Of a DNA stretch of 45,394 nucleotides, positions 595 to 45,394 are shown piece after piece. Position 1 is the stretch's first letter; each line of letters starts with the position of its first letter. A program made the position numbers and the translations under genes. Source of the DNA: a virus; IMG/VR virus record IMGVR_UViG_3300010376_000016, positions 1 through 45,394 of that record; one strand, 5' to 3'. The notes under the pieces were generated by a model. The model was not told where the DNA came from and ran no database searches. It saw only the letters and a list, made by a program, of their open reading frames with translations.

Positions 595-659
595 GGGAGC
601 GCTTCGGCGCTCCCCACGGTCCAACAGGGGCCAGAATCACTCACAAGGAGGAACGAACG
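595..659 (+). repeat. Intercistronic cassette copy B: hairpin GGGAGCGC-TTCG-GCGCTCCC, CACGGTCCAACAGGGGCCA box, CACAAGGAGGAAC SD
   Basis: Read directly; begins 3 nt after stop of upstream ORF, ends at ATG 660. Confidence 0.85.
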
Positions 660-1043
660 ATGTCGCGCACGATCACACTCAGCGCCAAGCAGTACGACCT
701 GCTGAGCTCGATCATGGGCTGGCTCGGAGACGAGGCTCACGCGGATCCCGCGTGGCTCGATCGCTTCGAGACGACCGATCATGAGCTCGACTGGCTCATC
801 CACGATCTGAACCCCGAGGCTCGTACGCTCTCGGGCGACGCTCGCACGGTGGAGCTCCAGGACGGCTCGACGCTCGCGGTGGACATCACTGACGACGGAG
901 AGACCGAGGGAGACCGCTCACGCGACGTTCCCTCGATCGGGCTCATCCGCGACGGCTACGTCGCAGTCGAGCTCACTTGGAACGAGGCCTACGCGCTCTC
1001 GTCGCATCTGAACGTCGTCACTCGCATCGCGGAGCACGGCTGA
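660..1043 (+). CDS. Hypothetical early protein (127 aa)
   Basis: Internal ATG of ORF 333..1043 placed directly after the SD motif; N-terminal extension is Arg/Ser-rich shadow. Confidence 0.7.
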   Translation: MSRTITLSAKQYDLLSSIMGWLGDEAHADPAWLDRFETTDHELDWLIHDLNPEARTLSGDARTVELQDGSTLAVDITDDGETEGDRSRDVPSIGLIRDGYVAVELTWNEAYALSSHLNVVTRIAEHG

Positions 1044-1050
1044 GCTCGGC

Positions 1051-1097
1051 GGAGCCCTACGGGGCTCCCACGGTCACCACTACACAAGGAGGAACAC
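1051..1097 (+). repeat. Intercistronic cassette copy C: hairpin GGAGCCC-TACG-GGGCTCC, CACGGTCAC box, ACACAAGGAGGAAC SD
   Basis: Read directly. Confidence 0.85.
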
Positions 1098-1454
1098 ATG
1101 GCGAAGTTCATCGTCATTCCGCTCTACGACCATGCACCCGCCGACGAGGTCCAGGAGATCCTGGACGGGCTCGCAGCGATGCAGTTCTCGCTCGCGCCGT
1201 ACTACGCCGAGGCGGAGCTCCCGCTCAACGTGGACGACGAGGACATCCCGCCCGACGAATGCCGGGCGATCCGCGAACGGCGCGAGCTCACGCAGTCGAT
1301 CAACACGGCTATCGGCCTGAAGGAGACCGCTGACGGCTCGGAGCTCGCGCTCCTGCGCTCGTTCGGAGTGCTGCGCGGGATCGTCAACGAGTACCGCGAC
1401 GGGGGCGATCAGATGGTCGAAGACTGCGACTGCGGCGAACACACGGGGAGCTAG
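1098..1454 (+). CDS. Hypothetical acidic early protein (118 aa)
   Basis: ORF track; ATG 2 nt after SD motif. Confidence 0.75.
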   Translation: MAKFIVIPLYDHAPADEVQEILDGLAAMQFSLAPYYAEAELPLNVDDEDIPPDECRAIRERRELTQSINTAIGLKETADGSELALLRSFGVLRGIVNEYRDGGDQMVEDCDCGEHTGS

Positions 1455-1507
1455 CGCTCCCCCACGGCTCAACAGGGGCCAAGACACACTCAACAAGGAG
1501 GAATCAC
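1445..1507 (+). repeat. Intercistronic cassette copy D: hairpin GGGGAGC-TAGC-GCTCCCC (stop codon TAG in the loop), CACGGCTCAACAGGGGCCA box, AACAAGGAGGAAT SD
   Basis: Read directly. Confidence 0.85.
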
Positions 1508-1723
1508 ATGACTGCTACCGACGTCGCCACTGCGTGGGACGTGGCGCTCGATCTGCTCGCGATCGTTGACGAGTCCCCCTCGGGACGGCTCGTCGGGTCC
1601 GAGGACACGACGATCGCGGAAGTGAAGCCCGGAGAGGGCTCGCGTCCGACGACGTTCCACGTCGTACTCGACAACGGCCAGCTCTTCACGATCAGCGTCG
1701 AAGACACGGGCATCTGGTCATGA
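1508..1723 (+). CDS. Hypothetical early protein (71 aa)
   Basis: ORF track; SD motif upstream. Confidence 0.7.
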   Translation: MTATDVATAWDVALDLLAIVDESPSGRLVGSEDTTIAEVKPGEGSRPTTFHVVLDNGQLFTISVEDTGIWS

Positions 1724-1842
1724 GTCACCTGATCCACATGACGATCATCGTCGGCGTGACGATCGCGCTCTGGGTCGGACTGATCGCGCTCGTGATCTAC
1801 GGCGTGATGATCGCCCGTGAGAAGTGGCAGGCACGACGATGA
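1720..1842 (+). CDS. Single-pass membrane micro-protein (40 aa, MSHLIHMTIIVGVTIALWVGLIALVIYGVMIAREKWQARR)
   Basis: Hand-translated; ATGA overlap with both flanking genes; hydrophobic core. Confidence 0.55.
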   Translation: MSHLIHMTIIVGVTIALWVGLIALVIYGVMIAREKWQARR

Positions 1843-2057
1843 CCACGTCCACGTTCAAGCTCGCGGGGATCCTGCTCAGCCTGCACGACGACGAATACGA
1901 GCACGACTACCTCGACGTGCTCGAAGAGCTCAAGACGCTCCTGCCCGAGCAGACGTTCAAGACGCTCTGCGAGGAGACGGAAACCTGCCCCGTCCACGTC
2001 TGCGACATCCAGATCTGCCTCGATGACAAGGAGCACGGATTGGAGGTCTACGAGTGA
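1839..2057 (+). CDS. Hypothetical acidic early protein (72 aa)
   Basis: ORF 1824..2057; the ATG at 1839 makes an ATGA overlap with the upstream stop. Confidence 0.65.
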   Translation: MTTSTFKLAGILLSLHDDEYEHDYLDVLEELKTLLPEQTFKTLCEETETCPVHVCDIQICLDDKEHGLEVYE

Positions 2058-2164
2058 CGGAGCTCGCGATCCTGCTCACGCTCGTCCAGGTCGGGCTCGT
2101 ACTCAGGTGGCTCGTGCTCGCGCACGTCGCGATCCGCAACAACCGACGCAACTGGGGCGCGTAA
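2054..2164 (+). CDS. Single-pass membrane micro-protein (36 aa)
   Basis: Hand-translated GTG ORF with GTGA overlap; stop TAA lies in the loop of hairpin E. Confidence 0.5.
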   Translation: MTELAILLTLVQVGLVLRWLVLAHVAIRNNRRNWGA

Positions 2165-2204
2165 GCGCCCCCACGGTCAACAACCAAACAAGGAGGAACC
2201 ACTC
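2154..2204 (+). repeat. Intercistronic cassette copy E: hairpin GGGGCGC-GTAA-GCGCCCC, CACGGTCAAC box, AACAAGGAGGAAC SD
   Basis: Read directly. Confidence 0.85.
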
Positions 2205-2561
2205 ATGACCAAGTGGATCGGAATGATGCTCGGCCTTGCGCTCTGCGCCATCGCGCTGACTGCCTGCACAACAGGCCAGTCGGCGTCAGGACAGGACGCG
2301 AACGGCACGTATAACTCGGGCGCTGCGCCCGCGAAGAACGCGATCAGCCTGAGCCAGTACCGCTCGGTCGCGATCGGCACACCCTGCTCGGACATCACGT
2401 TCGAGTTCGGCCCACCCGCCGACAAGCAGGACTTCTCGACGGGCGGATACCACGACGTGACGCTGATGTACAACGACGTCAACGCGAGCGGTGACTTCGC
2501 AATCCCGCAGTACTCGTTCGACTGCGTGAACGGCAAGCTCGATAGCAAGGCGAACGTGTAA
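2205..2561 (+). CDS. Putative lipoprotein (118 aa; signal peptide with lipobox LTAC); candidate superinfection-exclusion or surface protein
   Basis: MTKWIGMMLGLALCAIALTAC TTG... matches the signal peptidase II pattern. Confidence 0.75.
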   Translation: MTKWIGMMLGLALCAIALTACTTGQSASGQDANGTYNSGAAPAKNAISLSQYRSVAIGTPCSDITFEFGPPADKQDFSTGGYHDVTLMYNDVNASGDFAIPQYSFDCVNGKLDSKANV

Positions 2562-2710
2562 TGAACGCCGTCATCGTGCTCGTCCTCTTCCTGCTCGTCG
2601 CCTTCATAGTCCTGTCGCCTTGGATCGCGGTCGTCCGCATCCGGGAGACGGTCGCCAGGCTGCAGGAATGGCAACGACTGCACGAAGCCGAGCATCAGCA
2701 CAGTGAGTAA
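2561..2710 (+). CDS. Single-pass membrane micro-protein (49 aa)
   Basis: Hand-translated; TAATG overlap with lipoprotein stop; hydrophobic N-terminus. Confidence 0.5.
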   Translation: MNAVIVLVLFLLVAFIVLSPWIAVVRIRETVARLQEWQRLHEAEHQHSE

Positions 2711-2712
2711 GT

Positions 2713-2761
2713 GGGGCGCGAAAGCGCCCCCACGGTCAACCAACGACAAGGAGGAACAACG
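2713..2761 (+). repeat. Intercistronic cassette copy F: hairpin GGGGCGC-GAAA-GCGCCCC, CACGGTCAAC box, GACAAGGAGGAAC SD
   Basis: Read directly. Confidence 0.85.
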
Positions 2762-3169
2762 ATGACTCAACTGGACGTCGTCGGCATCGGGGACATCGCC
2801 TCGATGACCGGCGTCAACCGGATCACCATCTCGATGTGGCAGCGGCGTGGGCACTTGCCTCCGCCTGACGCGACACCGTCGTGTGGTCCGGTCTGGTGGC
2901 GCTCGACAATCGAGCGCTGGATGCTGGGCACAGGCCGGACGCGAGTCGGGCGCGTGACCAACGAGACGATCACGCCGAAGGATCTCGCAGCGGAGCTCGG
3001 GATCGACCCGAAACGGTTGCGCGATTGGCTCCGTGCGACCCATCCCCGGGCGCTCGAAGCGAAGCACACGACGTGGGCGATCGACCGCGCGACGGCAGAC
3101 GAAGCCCGCGCGTACTTCGAGCCCGGCGTTCTCGCCGTGCCCGATCAGGCCTGGAGAGCCAGGACATGA
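2762..3169 (+). CDS. MerR/excisionase-type HTH DNA-binding protein (135 aa); candidate excisionase/RDF
   Basis: IGDIASMTGVNRITISMWQRRGHLPPP...VWWRSTIERW resembles the Xis/AlpA-type HTH; ATG follows the SD motif. Confidence 0.6.
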   Translation: MTQLDVVGIGDIASMTGVNRITISMWQRRGHLPPPDATPSCGPVWWRSTIERWMLGTGRTRVGRVTNETITPKDLAAELGIDPKRLRDWLRATHPRALEAKHTTWAIDRATADEARAYFEPGVLAVPDQAWRART

Positions 3170-3401: not shown

Positions 3402-4181
3402 TCAGGGCCGGGCGCAGGCTGCGCCCATCTCCAGGTTCGGCACCAGCCCCGAGGGGCCATCCGATTCACCAATCCTACTGCGCTGGCGCTGCTTTCGCAG
3501 CGTCCGCTTGACGTGCTCGCGGGAGAGCCCGAGCCGGGCTGCGATCGCGCCCGGCTTGAAGCCGTCGGCAGCGAGCTCGGCCACGGTCGCGTTCACGCTC
3601 ATTCGCTCGTGCTCCATCAGCCACGGCGGTACCCGGATCACGCGCATCCGAAGCGTGATCGTCACGACACCGAGGTCGAGCTCCAGCTGGTCGAGCTCAT
3701 CGAGGCGGCGCGGCTGCTGCTCGACCAGGACGACCCGGACAAGCGTGTGACGACGGGGCGCGTCGAGCGCGAGCTCGGCTAGCCGCTGGCGCACCTCACG
3801 GTAGCTCCCGCGCCGCTCGTACGCCTCTCTCAGCCGCTCCCACTGGTAGGGCGACTCGTTGGTCGCGTCCGGTGTCCGACGCCGGGGAGCGACCTCGACG
3901 GGCAGCGCGACGGCCTCCTGAACGGGCAGGCCGACGTAGGCGTCCCATTCGAGCTCGCCGTGCTGGCGGCGACGCCAGCCGACGCCGTCGCAGACAAGGC
4001 AGAGGGCGAACTCGCGCCGTCGGCGGATCCAGCCGGTCCGCTTGCACGTCTCGCAGGGGACGTAGCGCGACGCGGCGGGCCCTGACTCTGGCCGCAGCGA
4101 CGTGCGCGGCTGCGGGTATGGGTCGTTCAACGTTTCCAGCAGGAGACGGACCCGCTGGACGCGCTCCACGAGGTCGGACAC
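3402..4181 (-). CDS. Transcriptional regulator (259 aa): two CxxCxGxG zinc-finger motifs plus C-terminal LuxR/sigma-70 region-4-like HTH; candidate immunity repressor or late regulator
   Basis: CETCKRTG and CLVCDGVG motifs; VAELAADGFKPGAIAARLGLSREHVKRTLRK; GTG start after GGGAG; divergent from the Cro-like gene. Confidence 0.6.
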   Translation of the reverse strand: MSDLVERVQRVRLLLETLNDPYPQPRTSLRPESGPAASRYVPCETCKRTGWIRRRREFALCLVCDGVGWRRRQHGELEWDAYVGLPVQEAVALPVEVAPRRRTPDATNESPYQWERLREAYERRGSYREVRQRLAELALDAPRRHTLVRVVLVEQQPRRLDELDQLELDLGVVTITLRMRVIRVPPWLMEHERMSVNATVAELAADGFKPGAIAARLGLSREHVKRTLRKQRQRSRIGESDGPSGLVPNLEMGAACARP

Positions 4182-4290
4182 ACGGCTCCCGTCCGCGCTC
4201 CTCGCGAGCCTTCGGCCGCCGCCACCTCTATCACACGAGCGCCCGCGTCAGGAAGAACTTCGCTTCGAGCAGGGGCTTTGCGGTTCCCGC

Positions 4291-4318
4291 TTGACGTCGT
4301 GGCAAACCGCTTTATCGT
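4291..4318 (+). promoter_or_regulatory. Sigma-70-like promoter candidate TTGACG-16 nt-TATCGT
   Basis: Read in the 380-bp divergent intergenic region. Confidence 0.35.
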
Positions 4319-4394
4319 GTCCCCGTTACATCGCCCAAGGACTCTCCTGGACGAGGGCGTCTGACGGCGCAGGATGGGTGTGGGTCTCTGCGGG

Positions 4395-4450
4395 CCCCGC
4401 CTCCACGCAGGCGGGGAACCCTCCCCCTTGGACCGCGAAAAGGGGAAGGG
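4395..4450. promoter_or_regulatory. Two adjacent GC-rich hairpins (CCCCGCC/GGCGGGG 7 bp; CCCTCCCCCTT/AAGGGGAAGGG 10 of 11 bp)
   Basis: Arms paired by hand. Confidence 0.5.
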
Positions 4451-4473
4451 AAATGCGTTTGCATTTCCTGCCG

Positions 4474-4479
4474 TATAAT
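4474..4479 (+). promoter_or_regulatory. Perfect TATAAT -10 hexamer in an AT-richer island, preceded by the inverted repeat AAATGC-N4-GCATTT (4451-4466)
   Basis: Read directly; no canonical -35 at 16-18 nt. Confidence 0.45.
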
Positions 4480-4484
4480 CGAAG

Positions 4485-4545
4485 TTGCAACACCCTTGCA
4501 GCAGTCTTGCAGCAGATCTGCCTGAGATCTGCCTATCATCTGCCT
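4485..4545 (+). repeat. Operator-like phased repeats: TTGCA(A/G)CA x3 at 4485, 4496, 4507, then ATCTGCCT x3 at 4516, 4527, 4538, each set spaced exactly 11 bp
   Basis: Positions counted from the sequence lines. Confidence 0.8.
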
Positions 4546-4562
4546 ATCGCTTTTCGGCTCGT

Positions 4563-4847
4563 GTGGCGAGGATCAACTCGTTGCGCTTGACTGCTATCCA
4601 CGCGAGCGAGGAGCGGCATGACGGCCGGTTTCACGAGCGAATCCGACGGCTTCGCCTGCAGCAGGGCATGAGCCAGCAGGAGGTCGCTGACGTGACCGAG
4701 ATCAGCGTCAGGACGTACCGGGAGTGGGAGAGCGGCCGGACCGTGCCCTACCCAGGCCCGAACCTGCGCCGGATCGTCGGCCTCTTCCGGGTGACGCCCA
4801 CCTACCTCCTGCGTGGCGACGAGGAGGGGCTCGATGCCTTCGATTGA
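4563..4847 (+). CDS. XRE-family HTH regulator, Cro-like (start uncertain: TTG 4485, GTG 4563 or TTG 4581)
   Basis: RIRRLRLQQGMSQQEVADVTEISVRTYREWESGR is a typical XRE HTH. Confidence 0.8.
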   Translation: MARINSLRLTAIHASEERHDGRFHERIRRLRLQQGMSQQEVADVTEISVRTYREWESGRTVPYPGPNLRRIVGLFRVTPTYLLRGDEEGLDAFD

Positions 4848-37740: not shown

Positions 37741-37766
37741 GGGCGGGGGTCCGAGGATCCCCGCCC
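37741..37766 (+). terminator. Strong GC hairpin GGGCGGGG-N10-CCCCGCCC without a U tract
   Basis: Paired by hand. Confidence 0.4.
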
Positions 37767-37803
37767 CACCGACGAGCCAAGAACCAAACCTCCAGAAGGA
37801 GGC

Positions 37804-37816
37804 CACAAGGAGGAAC
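37804..37816 (+). promoter_or_regulatory. Orphan copy of the CACAAGGAGGAAC motif, about 100 nt upstream of the next credible start
   Basis: Read directly; in-frame stop at 37834 excludes an extension of the 37918 ORF. Confidence 0.7.
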
Positions 37817-42770: not shown

Positions 42771-43481
42771 CTAGCCCTGTATTGATGCGGGATCTAGGGA
42801 GGGTGGCTCTGGCTGGCTCTGGCCCTCCAGCAGGCTTGCCGCGAGCTCCTGCATCGCCTGCCACGACATGGATCCGAGCTCCTCAGCCGAGCTCGGGAGC
42901 TCCACGCTGATCGACGCAGAGCTCGGCGGATAGAGGAGCTCCAGAGCCCGCAAGGCCGCTTGTTGCCTAGCGATTGTGCCGAGCTCGTCGTCGTCTAGCG
43001 GCGCGTCCACGATCGCAGCCGCGAAGTCTTCCGCGCGAATCTGCGCAGCGACGCGCGCCGCTTGCAGGGGGCTTGCCGCTCGTCTGGCGCTGATGCCCAA
43101 CGTTGCGCGAGCTCTAGCGCGGGCTCTCTTCTGCTCGTGGCCCTGCTTCGAGAAGCGTCCAGGATCCCGAGCTATGCCCGTTCCAGCATGCCCAGCGCAG
43201 AGCCCGCCGAACCTGTGCGAGCGTGTCCCCCTGCAGCGCGAGCCGTCTGGCTTGATGACTCGACAGCGTCCATCGTCTGGCCCCTCGAATAACTCATACG
43301 TGTCAGGCAGGGTGTAACTTTGTGTTTCACTCTGTGACTCGTCGGGCACGACTGCCGACGCTGAACCTTGAAAACCGAGCGTCACGAGCTCCGCCGAGCG
43401 GTCTCCCTCCGTGGGACGGTTAGACCCGTCCGCGTGTTGGCCCTCATTGGCTGCGAGCTCCTGCCGCTCGGTTTCGCGCAC
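42771..43481 (-). CDS. Hypothetical protein (236 aa) with Cys/His motif RCRVIKPDGSRCRGTRSHRFGGLCAGHAG; weak candidate for small terminase or DNA-binding protein
   Basis: ORF track; GTG after GGAGGAGG. Confidence 0.6.
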   Translation of the reverse strand: MRETERQELAANEGQHADGSNRPTEGDRSAELVTLGFQGSASAVVPDESQSETQSYTLPDTYELFEGPDDGRCRVIKPDGSRCRGTRSHRFGGLCAGHAGTGIARDPGRFSKQGHEQKRARARARATLGISARRAASPLQAARVAAQIRAEDFAAAIVDAPLDDDELGTIARQQAALRALELLYPPSSASISVELPSSAEELGSMSWQAMQELAASLLEGQSQPEPPSLDPASIQG

Positions 43482-43673
43482 CTTGAAACCTCCATATTTC
43501 CTCCTCCTTACCCTGGATCACGATCCAAGCGGAGGAGCTCTCTTGACCCTGACGACCGCGACGGCGGAGCGCTTCGGCGCTGACTGGGGAGAGCTCCGCT
43601 CGTCCGCTCGTGATCACCAGTCGAATGGGGACGGGAAGGCTCCCTGTCGTGGGGAGCCGAGCTCCTCCCGATC

Positions 43674-43703
43674 CACGGTCACACACTCACACAAGGAGGA
43701 ACC
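43674..43703 (+). repeat. Intercistronic cassette copy G (first of the operon): CACGGTCAC box plus CACACAAGGAGGAAC SD, no canonical tetraloop hairpin
   Basis: Read directly. Confidence 0.8.
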
Positions 43704-43946
43704 ATGGCAGCGCATACGTCCACCCATATCGAGGGGCTCGGCGTGTTCACGATCACAAGTCACGTTGTCGAGTCGCTCGCGCTGAAGCCCTACATCGAGT
43801 TTCGCCTAGAGCATCGCTCCGAGCTCGATGGCTCGTTTCTCGGCTTCTGCGCGATGGGTTCGCACCTGTTCTGCACGGAAGCGCTGGAGCGCATCCAAGA
43901 CGAGCAGGCAGCCGGGAAGGCCGAGCTCCGAGCTCGCACCCAGTAG
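43704..43946 (+). CDS. Hypothetical early protein (80 aa)
   Basis: ORF track; SD motif. Confidence 0.7.
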   Translation: MAAHTSTHIEGLGVFTITSHVVESLALKPYIEFRLEHRSELDGSFLGFCAMGSHLFCTEALERIQDEQAAGKAELRARTQ

Positions 43947-43953
43947 CGCACGG

Positions 43954-44016
43954 GCTCCACGCGAGTGGAGCTCCACGGCTCAACAGGGGCCACACTCACA
44001 CAAGGAGGAACACACG
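43954..44016 (+). repeat. Intercistronic cassette copy H: hairpin GCTCCAC-GCGA-GTGGAGC, CACGGCTCAACAGGGGCCA box, SD
   Basis: Read directly. Confidence 0.85.
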
Positions 44017-44259
44017 ATGTCACGCAAGGATTACCGGGCGATCGCTGCCGCTCTCGCGGAAGTCGAGAGCATCATCGAGACGACGGGCGATGCTGAGGGA
44101 CACTCAGCCTCAACCCTTCGGCTCGTCGTGGACGCAGTCGGCGGAGCTCTCAAGCGCGACAATGCGCGCTTCGATTACGAGCGTTTCCAGGCTGCCGCTC
44201 TGCCGATCCAGACGGAGCGGAAGGTTCGCATCATCCGCGAGACCCTCGCACGGTCGTAA
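44017..44259 (+). CDS. Hypothetical early protein (80 aa)
   Basis: ATG after the SD motif, in frame with ORF 43828..44259. Confidence 0.7.
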   Translation: MSRKDYRAIAAALAEVESIIETTGDAEGHSASTLRLVVDAVGGALKRDNARFDYERFQAAALPIQTERKVRIIRETLARS

Positions 44260-44264
44260 GCGCT

Positions 44265-44310
44265 GGAGCTCCTCCGGGAGCTCCCACGGTCACACACACA
44301 AGGAGGAACC
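44265..44310 (+). repeat. Intercistronic cassette copy I: hairpin GGAGCTCC-TCCG-GGAGCTCC, CACGGTCAC box, SD
   Basis: Read directly. Confidence 0.85.
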
Positions 44311-44544
44311 ATGTCGGATCAGACTTATAACGGCTGGACGAACTATGAAACGTGGAATGTCGGGCTCTGGCTCATGAATGAGGAGCCGCTCTACCACGAA
44401 ACCATGCGCATCGTTGCGCGGCCTAACGCGGCGGCCGAGCTCGAATCGTTCGTGCGCGAGCTCGCGCCGAACGGCTTCGAGACCGAGCCCTATTCGCTCG
44501 ATGACGTGAACTGGGACGAGCTCGCAGAAAGCCTGAATGACTGA
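44311..44544 (+). CDS. Hypothetical early protein (77 aa; NGWTNYETWNV motif)
   Basis: ORF track; SD motif. Confidence 0.75.
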   Translation: MSDQTYNGWTNYETWNVGLWLMNEEPLYHETMRIVARPNAAAELESFVRELAPNGFETEPYSLDDVNWDELAESLND

Positions 44545-44602
44545 GACCGCTTCGGCGGTCTCCACGGCTCAACAGGGGCCAAACACACAAGGAGGAAACG
44601 CA
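44543..44602 (+). repeat. Intercistronic cassette copy J: hairpin GAGACCGC-TTCG-GCGGTCTC, CACGGCTCAACAGGGGCCA box, SD
   Basis: Read directly; the stem starts inside the upstream TGA. Confidence 0.85.
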
Positions 44603-44977
44603 ATGTACGAGCACCTGAACACCTGGACCCCGAACGGTTTCCCGTCTGCCTGTGAGGCACGGCTCGACCTGTGGGAGACAGGCAGGACGCGCGACGGGAA
44701 GCACGAGCTCCGCTATGCGCTCTGGCTCATGGCGGAGGGTCGCTCCGCGACTATCGAGGGTGAAGACTTCTGGCCCTCCCCGCTTCACGCGCTTGACTCG
44801 GACGAGAGCGCTGCAGGCCTGCTCGGCTTCCTCGCATACGACGCGGAAGCGCTCAGGTTCGGCACGGATGACGAGCTCATCATTCAGCGCTACTCAGAAC
44901 GTCAGCGCGAGCTCCTCGAACGGCTCGGAGACGAGCTCAGTATGTGGAGCTCGGAGCTCGAAGACGGAGCCGCTTAG
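44603..44977 (+). CDS. Hypothetical early protein (124 aa)
   Basis: ATG after the SD motif. Confidence 0.7.
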   Translation: MYEHLNTWTPNGFPSACEARLDLWETGRTRDGKHELRYALWLMAEGRSATIEGEDFWPSPLHALDSDESAAGLLGFLAYDAEALRFGTDDELIIQRYSERQRELLERLGDELSMWSSELEDGAA

Positions 44978-45017
44978 CGGCTCCCACGGTCACACACAAC
45001 ACAAGGAGGAACCTGCA
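44966..45017 (+). repeat. Intercistronic cassette copy K: hairpin GGAGCCGC-TTA-GCGGCTCC (stop TAG spans the loop), CACGGTCAC box, SD
   Basis: Read directly. Confidence 0.85.
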
Positions 45018-45221
45018 ATGACTGGTACTGCCGATCTGAGTTTCGAGCAGATTTTCACGATCCATCGCTCCGCTCAGGAGACGAGCTCACACATACATCG
45101 TGTGCTCATCCACCCGGGCTACACCGCAAAGGCGGTCCGCGTCGTCTTCGAGTGCGGCTCACGCTCATTCGCATTCGGCGTCCTGCGCGACGGTAGGCGC
45201 GTTCCCGTAGAGACGCTCTAG
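45018..45221 (+). CDS. Hypothetical early protein (67 aa)
   Basis: ATG after the SD motif. Confidence 0.7.
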   Translation: MTGTADLSFEQIFTIHRSAQETSSHIHRVLIHPGYTAKAVRVVFECGSRSFAFGVLRDGRRVPVETL

Positions 45222-45228
45222 TCACATG

Positions 45229-45293
45229 GCCCCGCTGCTCGCGGGGCTTCACGGCTCAACAGGGGCCAGAACTACACACAAGGAGGAACCACG
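45229..45293 (+). repeat. Intercistronic cassette copy A: hairpin GCCCCGC-TGCTC-GCGGGGC, CACGGCTCAACAGGGGCCA box, SD (3' part duplicated at 1-22)
   Basis: Read directly. Confidence 0.85.
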
Positions 45294-45394
45294 ATGGAAA
45301 CACTCACTGCTACGCCGTGCGTGAACTGCGAGTCACGCTCATACGTCGAGCACGTTGACGTGAAGATCGCAGGCGAGCTCTACCGCGTCTGCGA
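45272..45394. repeat. Terminal direct repeat, identical to 1-123
   Basis: Base-by-base comparison. Confidence 0.97.
45294..45394 (+). CDS. Truncated duplicate of the 5' end of the 23..592 gene (assembly overlap, not a separate gene)
   Basis: Identical to 23-123. Confidence 0.9.
   Translation, partial: METLTATPCVNCESRSYVEHVDVKIAGELYRVC

Follow-up and report, generated by a model that had tools for sequence, protein, structure and literature searches.

Hairpin-box cassettes between the early genes of a soil phage and their complementarity to a hammerhead-like leader RNA

A cassette repeated along an early operon

The window, i.e., the whole stretch of DNA that was analysed (45,394 nucleotides, IMG/VR virus record IMGVR_UViG_3300010376_000016), belongs to a soil phage and carries a 16-gene, + strand operon of early genes that spans from 43704, across the window end, to 3378. 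The same cassette is found in all ten non-overlapping gene junctions and consists of a perfect hairpin of 7-9 bp, CAC, a box (GGUCA or GG(C)UCAAC), a CA-rich spacer, ACAAGGAGGAA, and ATG (Table 1). The 3' arm of the hairpin directly abuts CAC-GG in nine gaps and is offset by 1 nt in the other. When the first site, upstream of gene 1, is included, 6 of the 11 boxes in the window are perfect GGUCA, four have a 1-nt insertion (GGCUCAAC), and one has a substitution (GGUCCAAC). The box is a conserved island between a hairpin and a spacer that are both variable, and the sites, which are intergenic and in a single orientation, are limited to this one operon. The boxes of the cassettes after gene 1 (GGCUCAAC) and gene 6 (GGUCCAAC) are able to form small hairpins themselves (43977-91 and 618-632, respectively). 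A promoter scan of 43200-45394 returned no promoter-like sites, TANNNT is not conserved in the cassettes, and a terminator scan returned no terminator-like sites.

Table 1. Coordinates of the leader elements, intercistronic cassettes, and adjoining features in the window
Feature	Position	Strand	Details
Leader arm UUGACC	43543-43548	+	reverse complement of GGUCAA box; position of hammerhead stem I 5' strand; covaries
CUGACGA, hammerhead C block (C3-A9)	43549-43555	+	single-stranded in junction, directly 3' of stem I strand
Helix a	43556-43567	+	CCGC-GACG-GCGG; double compensatory changes at all 5 pairs; 100% of cells paired; RNAalifold agrees
Helix b	43568-43581	+	A-GCGC-UUCG-GCGC-U; double changes at all 5 pairs
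Helix c	43582-43622	+	GACUGG (43582-87)/CCAGUC (43617-22); closes variable insert; double changes at 4/6 pairs
GAA (G12 A13 A14), then UGG (15.1-15.3)	43623-43628	+	GAA at 43623-25; UGG complementary to box CCA
Variable stem III domain	43629-43675	+	alternative hairpins 43638-58 and 43651-67; ends in CCA (43673-75)
First site	43676-43703	+	C17 43676; GGUCAC 43677-82; CA-rich spacer; SD 43691-43701; gene 1 ATG 43704
Cassette after gene 1	43952-44016	+	hairpin 43952-43973, GGGCUCCAC-gcga; CA; C17 43976; box GGCUCAAC 43977-84; SD 44000-10
Cassette after gene 2	44265-44310	+	hairpin 44265-44284, GGAGCUCC-uccg; C17 44287; box GGUCAC 44288-93; SD 44298-308
Cassette after gene 3	44543-44602	+	hairpin 44543-44562, GAGACCGC-uucg; C17 44565; box GGCUCAAC 44566-73; SD 44587-97
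Cassette after gene 4	44966-45017	+	hairpin 44966-44984, GGAGCCGC-uua; C17 44987; box GGUCAC 44988-93; SD 45001-11
Cassette after gene 5	45228-45293	+	hairpin 45228-45248, GGCCCCGC-ugcuc; UCA; C17 45252; box GGCUCAAC 45253-60; SD 45278-88
Cassette after gene 6	595-659	+	hairpin 595-614, GGGAGCGC-uucg-GCGCUCCC; C17 617; box GGUCCAAC 618-625; SD 643-653
Cassette after gene 7	1051-1097	+	hairpin 1051-1068, GGAGCCC-uacg; C17 1071; box GGUCAC 1072-77; SD 1084-94
Cassette after gene 8	1445-1507	+	hairpin 1445-1462, GGGGAGC-uagc; C17 1465; box GGCUCAAC 1466-73; SD 1493-1503
Cassette after gene 12	2154-2204	+	hairpin 2154-2171, GGGGCGC-guaa; C17 2174; box GGUCAAC 2175-81; SD 2188-98
Cassette after gene 14	2713-2761	+	hairpin 2713-2730, GGGGCGC-gaaa; C17 2733; box GGUCAAC 2734-40; SD 2746-56
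Box-less hairpin	3410-3426	.	GGGCGCA-ggc-UGCGCCC; between operon end and convergent anchor gene
Conserved zinc-ribbon plus HTH protein	3402-4181	-	convergent with operon; adjoins it in related loci

The hairpins as RNA elements

A preliminary description of this DNA had placed ten hairpins in the operon, with stems that differ in sequence while pairing is kept, and all ten were found. Their folding energies range from -13.6 to -16.6 kcal/mol, and comparison with shuffled sequences gives z scores of -4.0 to -5.3 per hairpin. Seven of the ten loops belong, as described, to the UNCG or GNRA class and have a C-G closing pair. The stop codons also lie where they had been reported: TAG (1452-54) and TAA (2162-64) inside the loops of the gene 8 and gene 12 hairpins, TAG (44975-77) across the loop and first 3'-arm base of the gene 4 hairpin, and TGA (44542-44) overlapping the 5' arm of the gene 3 hairpin. 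Equally in agreement, a U tract follows none of the ten hairpins, the next 8 nt being G+C-rich (CACGGUCA). A lone hairpin would be unremarkable, since in a genome of 66% GC such as this one, stems of at least 7 bp arise approximately once every 400 nt; the cassette hairpins nonetheless stand out because they occupy 10 of 10 gaps, with the 3' arm on CAC-GG in nine.

The zinc-ribbon/HTH gene served as an anchor, with which 75 related loci were retrieved; the family sample comprises 122 non-identical cassettes from 33 related soil-phage contigs/loci. UNCG and GNRA loops account for 43 of 67 cassette tetraloops (64%), compared with 130 of 1411 (9%) in control hairpins, and for 2 of 42 when the cassette tetraloops are read in antisense. 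G.U pairs outnumber A.C mismatches (60 versus 16 in the 122 cassettes), and in 14 orthologous junction pairs, the hairpin is kept but its sequence is different. This sense-only tetraloop enrichment, the excess of G.U over A.C, and the conservation of structure without sequence, both across the 122 cassettes and in the orthologous pairs, bear out the RNA-level function that had been proposed. Thus, it is strongly supported that the hairpins are real RNA elements under selection on the sense strand.

A leader RNA with hammerhead core motifs

The operon leader (43543-43682) is a conserved, structured RNA, supported by covariation, that carries hammerhead core motifs. Its elements are ordered as UUGACC, CUGACGA, three helices, GAA-UGG, a stem, and CCA-C/GGUCA (the slash after N17 marks the putative cleavage position here and below). 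Fourteen leaders were found, ten of which were used for alignment and covariation analysis. The share of paired cells in the 10-leader alignment is 93.6%, compared with 78.5% after shuffling, and none of 500 shuffles matched; double changes occur at 16 of 25 leader pairs, slid controls give 14-41%, and RNAalifold independently recovers the same helices. CUGAUGA or CUGACGA is found in 14 of 14 leaders. In the ten aligned leaders, the C block is invariant except at N7 (U or C) and GAA is invariant, and the other four leaders also carry C block and GAA motifs. Within the operon, CUGACGA at 43549-55 is the sole CUGANGA of this kind, apart from a chance match at 889.

The arrangement follows the hammerhead in several respects. 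CUGANGA is single-stranded and lies directly 3' of the stem I strand, and GAA is located between the positions of stem II and stem III. The stem I pairing, UUGACC/GGUCA(C), covaries from C-G to U-A and also includes U.G. The closing G-C pair of helix c is invariant, adjoins GAA, and resembles the hammerhead 10.1-11.1 pair. Among the first sites, of which 11 were found, N17 is always C, U, or A; in the window it is C43676. Other features depart from the model. Pair 15.1/16.1 covaries among leaders from A-U to U-A: seven leaders have A15.1-U16.1, whereas U15.1-A16.1 (GAAU...AC) is present in the window, L047, and L055. NAH triplets can be cleaved under the relaxed NHH rule, but they are poorer substrates (PMC3884650). 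A single stem II joining A9 and G12 is absent; because the three abutting helices a, b, and c replace it, the core is a five-way junction, and its activity is uncertain. An Rfam search of the window gave no match at E <=10, and the hammerhead models miss the leader.

The leader also bears on the first cassette (box 43673-43682), which had been described as free of a hairpin and taken as a sign that the hairpin serves the upstream cistron. Two mutually exclusive hairpins (43638-43658 and 43651-43667) in fact lie 5-15 nt upstream, inside the larger conserved leader structure, and their presence weakens that argument. The preliminary description overlooked the complementarity of the box behind each hairpin to the hammerhead-like leader RNA.

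Complementarity between leader arms and cassette boxes

In each genome, almost every box can pair with the arms of the leader encoded there, with a single C or U left unpaired between the two paired stretches, and arms and boxes co-vary between lineages in four clear groups. In group A, leader GAA-UGG and UGA(C/U)C face cassette CCA-C/GGUCA; the counterparts are GAA-AGG and UGACC with CCU-C/GGUC in group B, GAA-AGA and UGACU with UCU-C/AGUCAUC in group C (at all 9 sites), and GAA-ACG and GGAA with CGU-C/UUCCC in group D. A fifth specificity pair is possible in L045. Of the 122 cassettes, 99 have C just before the box, 12 have U, 3 have A, and 8 have G, which is near the hammerhead H17 rule. 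The internal cassettes are complementary to both putative enzyme arms around one unpaired H; a self-cleaving motif with all three blocks is absent from them, as are a C block of their own and, in a search of their vicinity, CUGANGA...GAA.

Most cassettes yield a site with their own leader in 13 of 14 genomes (exceptions: L036, 6/15; L062, 3/12), and the pattern holds in 22 of 23 cassettes from further IMG/VR contigs. When cognate and non-cognate combinations are compared, the own-group mean is 4-9 bp for groups A-C and approx. 3 for group D, versus 0-0.8 with the leaders of other groups. Group B cassettes, however, cross-react with the L041 (group C) leader via a G.U pair, and L062 cassettes reach 1.6-1.8 even with their own leader. 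Moreover, many cassettes of L062 and group D have only 1-4 bp of stem I complementarity, and in several lineages the hairpin itself includes N17 as a paired base (offset 0). In cofolding, UUGACC/GGUCAA is the top intermolecular contact for canonical boxes (ddG -6 to -8 kcal/mol). In four genomes (L035, L041, L047, and L025), the first, cis site is a poorer match to the leader arms than the internal cassettes are, which argues against pure hitch-hiking. Few independent evolutionary events underlie the specificity groups, and part of the complementarity signal could be mimicked by concerted cassette evolution through recombination.

Alternative functions of the cassettes

Exchange of genes at the cassettes suggests that they might act as DNA, as linkers promoting homologous recombination of small orphan genes. 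In close relatives, the breaks in homology fall exactly at cassettes: L055 and L058 differ by the insertion or deletion of a gene together with its cassette, with a 21-bp overlap, and genes have been replaced between cassettes in L073/L074. Gene content is mosaic, only 3 of 16 operon genes being common to the window and L010, and PHROG matches are restricted to the products of genes 3 and 15, the other 14 of the 16 operon proteins having none. A precedent is provided by the PeSLs of T4-like phages, stem-loop-plus-SD repeats that likewise flank small orphan early genes and at which recombination shuffles genes; they combine, however, an AT-rich tract with a strong sigma-70 promoter and have the stem-loop as a terminator (PMC2839356), and no leader complementarity is known for them. 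No sigma-70-type promoter was found in the scanned part of the window (0 sites, 43200-45394), and a DNA-level function, which we consider improbable, leaves unexplained the sense-strand tetraloops, the excess of G.U over A.C, the compensated variable stems, and the leader complementarity. The box-SD tract is a recombination joint for swapping small genes, but as a by-product; recombination is better viewed as a consequence of the conserved tract. The same joints and mosaic gene content, together with the real RNA-level signals of the hairpins, could also be reconciled with generic mRNA punctuation, in which the hairpin is a 3'-end stabiliser or insulator and box, CA-rich spacer, and strong SD form a leader optimised for translation, where a host RNase perhaps makes the cut. 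A true hammerhead substrate would then be present at the first site alone, and internal boxes would descend from it, homogenised by recombination. The poor pairing of boxes with the arm in L062 and group D would suit this explanation, as would the stable C(UUCG)G hairpins that Tuerk et al. reportedly described in T4 intercistronic regions in 1988. It is nevertheless rather unlikely. The box is an isolated conserved island between variable hairpin and spacer, and selection on it is therefore needed in every cassette; internal boxes surpass the first site in leader-arm match in four genomes; and two-sided complementarity around one unpaired non-G base recurs in four to five groups. We know of no host factor that reads GGUCA.

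The preliminary description had also considered a terminator lacking a U tract, and hairpins acting as such intrinsic terminators or attenuators might set an expression gradient along the operon. GC-rich hairpins right after stop codons and the box-less hairpin at the operon end (3410-3426) are in line with this, as are the terminators without poly-U that Ingham et al. are said to have described in 1995 in the early region of actinophage phiC31. The T4 and phiC31 elements, reportedly, are like the cassettes in being hyperstable tetraloop hairpins between cistrons without U tracts, but an adjacent conserved box or partner RNA has not been described for them. Termination here is quite improbable because ten hairpins in series, with no promoter-like sequence in the scanned 43200-45394, would silence the distal genes, which must be expressed. 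It would leave the covariation of box and leader unexplained, the sequence past each hairpin is G+C-rich, and in vitro, termination by mycobacterial RNA polymerase depends on a U tract (PMC3993855). Protection of the 3' end of the upstream cistron by the hairpin, also suggested earlier, fits the findings. The box, in turn, might be bound by a phage protein, either as a stoperator-like site or by an RNA-binding regulator, the candidate being the zinc-ribbon/HTH protein. Stoperator sites of Cluster A are asymmetric, genome-wide, and repressor-bound. The cassette sites are asymmetric, in one orientation, and intergenic, their box variant is lineage-specific, and the conserved predicted DNA-binding protein is always adjacent; however, they are limited to one operon, and two-sided Watson-Crick complementarity to the leader can account for the lineage variants with no protein involved, which makes protein binding very improbable.

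A proposed hammerhead-type processing system

The complementarity of the box to a hammerhead-like leader RNA points to site-specific cleavage between hairpin and box. On these sequence features, we tentatively propose, as the best explanation, that the cassettes may be processing sites of hammerhead type that share a single core encoded in the leader. Each cassette would mark a site of RNA processing between two cistrons and would correspond to the substrate half of a hammerhead ribozyme, in which the variable, very stable stem-loop would act as stem III and, after the cut, would be left as a cap at the 3' end of the upstream mRNA. The two to three bases that follow (CCA in the window phage) would pair with UGG just past the leader GAA, the one unpaired base (C, sometimes U) would be the cleavage nucleotide N17, and GGUCA(A) would form stem I with the leader arm UUGACC. 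The catalytic strand, UUGACC-CUGACGA-helices a, b, c-GAA-UGG, would be encoded once per operon, in the 5' leader. It would cut in cis directly before the first GGUCA, between C43676 and G43677, and would also cut the ten internal cassettes, either in trans or over a long distance. Single-gene mRNAs would thereby arise from the early polycistronic transcript, each starting with a 5'-OH GGUCA-CA-rich-SD leader and ending in a tetraloop hairpin. Catalysis, action on the internal sites, and effects on mRNA stability or expression are what we infer from these features. With slightly more reserve, we suggest that this might represent a natural one-enzyme, many-substrates hammerhead, with a leader core serving approx. 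ten dispersed intercistronic sites through two short arms. Several points count against the hammerhead reading: stem III in trans would have only 2-3 bp, 5 of the 11 window boxes have an extra or changed base (GGCUCAAC, GGUCCAAC), and once the leader had cleaved itself, its own stem III and 3' tail would act as competitors. No report of a natural hammerhead with one core and many substrate sites was found in the literature that was searched. Natural hammerheads are described as self-cleaving, and to our knowledge, no natural multi-substrate hammerhead is known.

Related systems show parts of this organisation. Clusters of active hammerheads have been described on either side of single genes in prophages (Perreault et al. 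2011, PMC3088659). Like the cassettes, they are intercistronic in phage operons, with cleavage right before the downstream leader, and their presumed role is the division of long phage transcripts into single-gene mRNAs, as proposed here; their downstream GG(U/C)C...GUCAA resembles the window box. However, each of their junctions has a whole ribozyme, with C, G, and S blocks, whereas the internal junctions of the window consist of stem III, the cleavage triplet, and the stem I strand, with a single C+G core in the leader. Complete hammerheads are found at the same junctions in the relatives L011, L016, and L017, whose gene-6 homolog has 58-61% identity; they are followed by GG(U/C)CUA(U)GUCAA, and these cis ribozymes score only 28.7 bits against RAGATH-1-hammerhead (gathering score 56.3). 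In engineered trans-cleaving hammerheads (Haseloff-Gerlach design) and RiboJ insulators, short arms flank an unpaired H17, and the cut separates cistrons from their upstream context, as proposed here, although those systems are artificial. In the discontinuous Clec2 hammerhead of mammalian 3' UTRs (Martick et al. 2008, reviewed in PMC6155905), enzyme and substrate strands lie hundreds of nt apart in the same mRNA, as proposed here; yet it is eukaryotic and combines one enzyme and one substrate with a canonical core, whereas the window has one core, approx. 11 candidate sites, and three helices in place of stem II. The SAS/ESAS elements of Cluster K mycobacteriophages (PMC3203893) also place a conserved SD-containing motif before non-structural genes, often with an upstream inverted repeat, and have a subcluster-specific consensus; however, ESAS arms keep their sequence, and where they deviate, RNA pairing is not supported, whereas the window stems vary freely and always pair.

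If hammerhead-type processing by the leader is true, each site would present a pre-formed tetraloop hairpin as stem III, and the arm and box would constitute a lineage-specific, co-evolving 'address', such that cassettes would be exchangeable between phages that share it.

Genomic context of the cassette operon

The window holds a complete phage-like genome (45,271 bp, 66% G+C), which must be circularly closed or terminally redundant, since the window ends carry an exact 123-bp repeat. No nucleotide match to it, near or distant, was found among GenBank phages, and its terminase shares less than 30% identity with that of any of them; the window contains no tRNAs, and Rfam returned no family for it at the gathering score or at E ≤10. 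The cassettes are confined to a single operon of 16 small genes, 14 of whose products lack a PHROG family. The product of gene 3 matches a PHROG family of unknown function, and that of gene 15 (second-to-last) is an excisionase/MerR-like HTH protein. Exact cassette patterns gave single chance matches only in IMG/VR and GTDB genomes, and no host prophage.

The anchor gene beyond the operon encodes a four-Cys zinc ribbon with a C-terminal HTH (weak HTH_23 / sigma70_r4 signals); it is always convergent with the cassette operon and has 148 homologs, many on 44-50 kb contigs. The non-coding gap past this gene holds a cluster of hairpins and short repeats (e.g., GCAGATCT...AGATCTGC; ctatcatctgcctat) that may be a regulatory or origin region. 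Elsewhere, a 484-aa ParB-like gene is preceded by an 11-bp GC hairpin, a CA-rich tract, and the same ACAAGGAGGAAC SD as in the cassettes, with no GGUCA box.

Coordinates of the features discussed (window positions unless a related locus, L0xx, is named)
Feature	Location	Remarks
End repeat	1-123 = 45272-45394	exact, 123 bp
Cassette operon	43704, across window end, to 3378 (+)	
Alternative hairpins before first box	43638-58; 43651-67	
Switch-like segments	43638-43667	GGCUCCC (A) / GGGGAGCC (B) / GCUCCUC (C)
Variant-box cassettes	43977-43991; 44566-44580; 45253-45267; 1466-1480; 618-632	box then AGGGGCC
Leaders with GAAGC and CGAGCU(N)CUC	window 43629-43672; L022; L029; L035; L041; L047; L072; L080	
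Cassettes with AUGA(A/G)UC loop	L047(-) 1470-1512; L055(-) 1860-1904, 2670-2710, 2970-3009; L073(-) 1040-1081	
Type I hammerheads flanking gene-6 homolog, both sides	L011 1820-1890, 2487-2569; L016 600-690, 1290-1380; L017 about 505-600	
Anchor gene	3402-4181 (-)	
Hairpin and short-repeat cluster	4395-4545	inside non-coding gap 4181-4813
Hairpin/CA-rich/SD element	37741-37815	upstream of ParB-like gene

Cassette structure and conservation

The preliminary description is borne out. The same cassette recurs at each non-overlapping gene junction (10 of 10), in the order stop codon, perfect 7-9 bp hairpin, CAC, GGUCA or GG(C)UCAAC, A/C-rich spacer, ACAAGGAGGAA, and ATG; overlapping junctions (ATGA, GTGA) are without it. 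Folding energies of the hairpins range from -13.6 to -16.6 kcal/mol (z about -4 to -5). The stable tetraloops reported earlier were found in seven of the ten window loops, as C(UNCG)G or C(GNRA)G. Similar-sized hairpins are frequent genome-wide, at about one per 400 nt; the non-random feature is the presence of a hairpin in 10 of 10 gaps, in fixed register with the box. The claim that the first cassette is hairpin-free did not hold, as two alternative hairpins precede its box. The three segments concerned can pair either A:B or B:C, a switch-like arrangement within the leader stem III domain, immediately before the first site. Variant boxes in the window (four GGCUCAAC, one GGUCCAAC) could, with the AGGGGCC that follows them, fold into GGCUC-AACAG-GGGCC, a small hairpin in which the box would be hidden; this hairpin, not seen in relatives, may tune processing.

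Homologs of gene 6 and of the anchor gene led to approximately 80 related metagenomic loci, mostly from soil, at least 33 of which carry the cassette, in 122 non-identical copies. The RNA-level function to which the loops had been thought to point gains support from this larger set: UNCG or GNRA make up 43 of 67 cassette tetraloops (UUCG alone 17), against 9.2% among 1411 control hairpins from the same DNA and 2 of 42 cassette hairpins read antisense. The stems contain 60 G.U pairs versus 16 A.C mismatches. Some stems are G-rich in the 5' arm and others C-rich, so it is not the sequence of the arms that is read. Pairing is indeed kept despite sequence change, since at 14 pairs of orthologous junctions the hairpin is wholly different yet perfect; at the other 23 it is identical (upstream gene 72-99% identity). 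Because hairpins are either identical or wholly replaced, point-mutation covariation among close orthologs is nearly uninformative. The differing pairs include single compensatory swaps in L035/L047 and L055/L058. Selection on the hairpin acts on the sense-strand RNA, and the cassette is a family trait.

The upstream stop codon lies 0-7 nt 5' of the hairpin in 49 cases (58 upstream overall), in the loop in 47, and almost never in the stem. TAG accounts for 58% of cassette-preceding stops across all loci (68/117) versus 41% in other window genes, where most stops are TGA. In some cassettes, a longer imperfect hairpin with a conserved AUGA(A/G)UC loop replaces the short tetraloop hairpin.

A hammerhead-like leader RNA

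A common leader lies about 130-160 nt 5' of the first gene in 14 genomes and comprises, in order, (U)UGACC, CUGA(U/C)GA, helices a, b, and c, GAA(A/U), a long variable stem, and (A/U)H↓GGUCA (arrow, predicted cut). Helix b is often GCGC-UUCG-GCGC, helix c has the form GACNNN...N'N'N'GUC, and the box and the arm UUGACC are reverse complements of each other. When folded without constraints, most leaders form the same multi-helix junction, which RNAalifold predicts from the alignment. Pair counting gives 93.6% paired versus 78.5% for shuffled alignments (0/500 shuffles reach the observed value); two-sided changes occur in 16 of 25 pairs, and slid controls are 14-41% paired. In order and placement, CUGANGA, GAA, and the unpaired non-G base that precedes stem I match a type I hammerhead. 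The leader departs from the canonical form in having three abutting helices in the stem II position, with a canonical G-C pair of helix c adjoining G12, and in the 15.1-16.1 pair, which is U-A in the window and canonically A-U. This pair covaries among leaders, GAAU occurring with ...AC↓ and GAAA with ...UC↓. No complete or trans hammerhead was found elsewhere in the window; a leader 14-mer had at least 120 chance matches in IMG/VR, and the leader structure was present in none of the matches listed. All leaders share two conserved, apparently unpaired motifs, GAAGC and CGAGCU(N)CUC, within a stem III domain that is variable elsewhere; these motifs could be a tertiary contact or protein site.

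In three relatives whose gene-6 homolog shows 58-61% identity (L011, L016, and L017), complete hammerheads occupy the same junctions. They consist of CUGACGAG, stem II, GAAAC, stem III, and GUC/GUU/AUU 5' of the predicted cut, after which come GG(U/C)CUA(U)GUCAA, an SD, and the start codon; some bear an extra 5' hairpin, as RAGATH-1 does, and the Rfam match of these hammerheads to RAGATH-1 is weak (28.7 bits, below gathering). The cassette corresponds to this type of hammerhead minus the 5' strand of stem I, the C block, stem II, and the G block. Prophage hammerhead clusters flanking single genes are known to be active, and a role in dividing phage transcripts into single-gene mRNAs has been proposed for them (PMC3088659). 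Together with the discontinuous Clec2 hammerhead (PMC6155905), they are the nearest known systems, from which the present arrangement would differ in its one proposed core for many sites.

Complementarity between boxes and leaders

The box is a conserved island flanked by a hairpin and a spacer that both vary, and its exact sequence is lineage-specific. When all cassettes were scored against all leaders (stem I pairs from 1.1/2.1 plus stem III pairs from 16.1/15.1, with one non-G base between), the scores formed a matrix with clear blocks.

Specificity groups of leaders and cassette sites (arrow, predicted cut)
Group	Loci	Leader	Site
A	window, L047, L055	GAA-UGG + UGA(C/U)C	CCA-C↓GGUCA
B	L022, L029, L035, L072, L073, L080, L081	GAA-AGG + UGACC	CCU-C↓GGUC
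C	L041	GAA-AGA + UGACU	UCU-C↓AGUCAUC, all nine sites
D	L025, L036	GAA-ACG + GGAA	CGU-C↓UUCCC

L045 possibly adds a fifth pair, GUCAGCC with GGCUGGC. There are exceptions: a G.U pair lets group B cassettes score against the L041 leader as well, and those of L062 obtain low scores even with their own leader; in L062 and part of group D, stem I is poorly complementary. Further IMG/VR contigs, retrieved by a two-anchor leader pattern, conform to the pairing pattern in 22 of 23 cassettes. Of the 122 cassettes, 99 have C directly before the box, 12 have U, 3 have A, and 8 have G; this base lies 0-5 nt past the hairpin. The best intermolecular contact in cofolding is UUGACC/GGUCAA (-6 to -8 kcal/mol); pairing of CA (16.2-16.1) with U4-G5, also suggested by cofolding, was discarded for want of covariation in group B. 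No internal cassette of the window has a CUGANGA of its own.

Proposed processing mechanism and alternatives

These features are best read as hammerhead processing at multiple sites by one leader core, which we regard as a serious possibility, if not quite a probable one. The leader core would cut 5' of the first GGUCA and also at each internal cassette, either long-range or in trans, recognizing its sites through a 5-6 bp stem I and a 2-3 bp stem III stacked onto the hairpin that the cassette itself provides. This would yield single-gene mRNAs with a 3' tetraloop hairpin ending in a 2',3'-cyclic phosphate and a 5'-OH leader of GGUCA, CA-rich tract, and SD. What the sequences show are the structures, complementarity, and covariation; catalysis, action on internal sites, and any physiological effect are what we infer. 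As the stop codon hugs the hairpin and N17 is buried in the hairpin base in several lineages, it might be speculated that cleavage is coupled to translation of the upstream gene. The weak points are that the leader core is non-canonical, that the trans stem III is very short, and that the leader's own stem III would compete with trans pairing. Others are the variant boxes of the window, the poor stem I fit of L062 and part of group D, the few independent events behind the specificity groups, and recombination between cassettes, through which boxes could have been homogenized. Even if the predicted cleavage should fail, the leader remains a structured RNA that is new and backed by covariation, and the cassettes remain a well-documented element at the RNA level.

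That the hairpins are generic stabilizers or insulators whose boxes were simply inherited is possible, though rather unlikely. In L035, L041, L047, and L025, the first site matches the leader arms less well than the internal cassettes do, which is hard to explain if the first site alone mattered. A primary role as recombination linker seems improbable, even though homology between close relatives breaks exactly at cassettes: L055 and L058 (minus strands) differ by gain or loss of a gene-plus-cassette unit with a 21-bp overlap, L073 and L074 (minus strands) by replacement of genes between cassettes, and the window has just genes 6, 15, and 16 plus the anchor gene in common with L010. Such shuffling parallels that mediated by PeSLs in T4-like phages, from which the cassettes differ in lacking the PeSL promoter (PMC2839356), no sigma-70-like promoter having been found in them. 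They differ also from ESAS repeats, whose arms are conserved and offer no support for RNA pairing (PMC3203893).

Termination or attenuation is slightly more improbable still. The absence of a U tract, noted earlier, was confirmed after all ten window hairpins, and the proposal of a U-tract-less terminator was not upheld: these are not canonical terminators, as mycobacterial RNA polymerase requires a U tract (PMC3993855). A protein-binding site is very improbable. Several other candidates were rejected: an RNase P or tRNA-like minihelix (NCCA is absent from most lineages), an integron attC (in view of the perfect stems and an RNA-level loop signal that is strand-specific), an RNase III site (the stems are too short), and box pairing with the anti-SD or 16S rRNA tail, to which the box is not complementary.

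Implications

Natural hammerheads are described as self-cleaving, with one ribozyme per site. If multi-site processing is true, the leader would be, as far as could be found, the first hammerhead in nature to act on multiple substrates (in trans or at long range), and the hammerhead core would tolerate a multi-helix junction in place of stem II. The system would also offer compact natural insulator parts (about 45 nt) driven by a single ribozyme, and would give a concrete function to repeats of the hairpin-plus-conserved-box kind, such as the so far unexplained SAS/ESAS of actinophages. It would explain how orphan-gene-rich early operons are punctuated in a large group of uncultured soil phages. 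Since the same 25-nt tract would be both ribozyme address and recombination joint, RNA processing would be linked to mosaicism.
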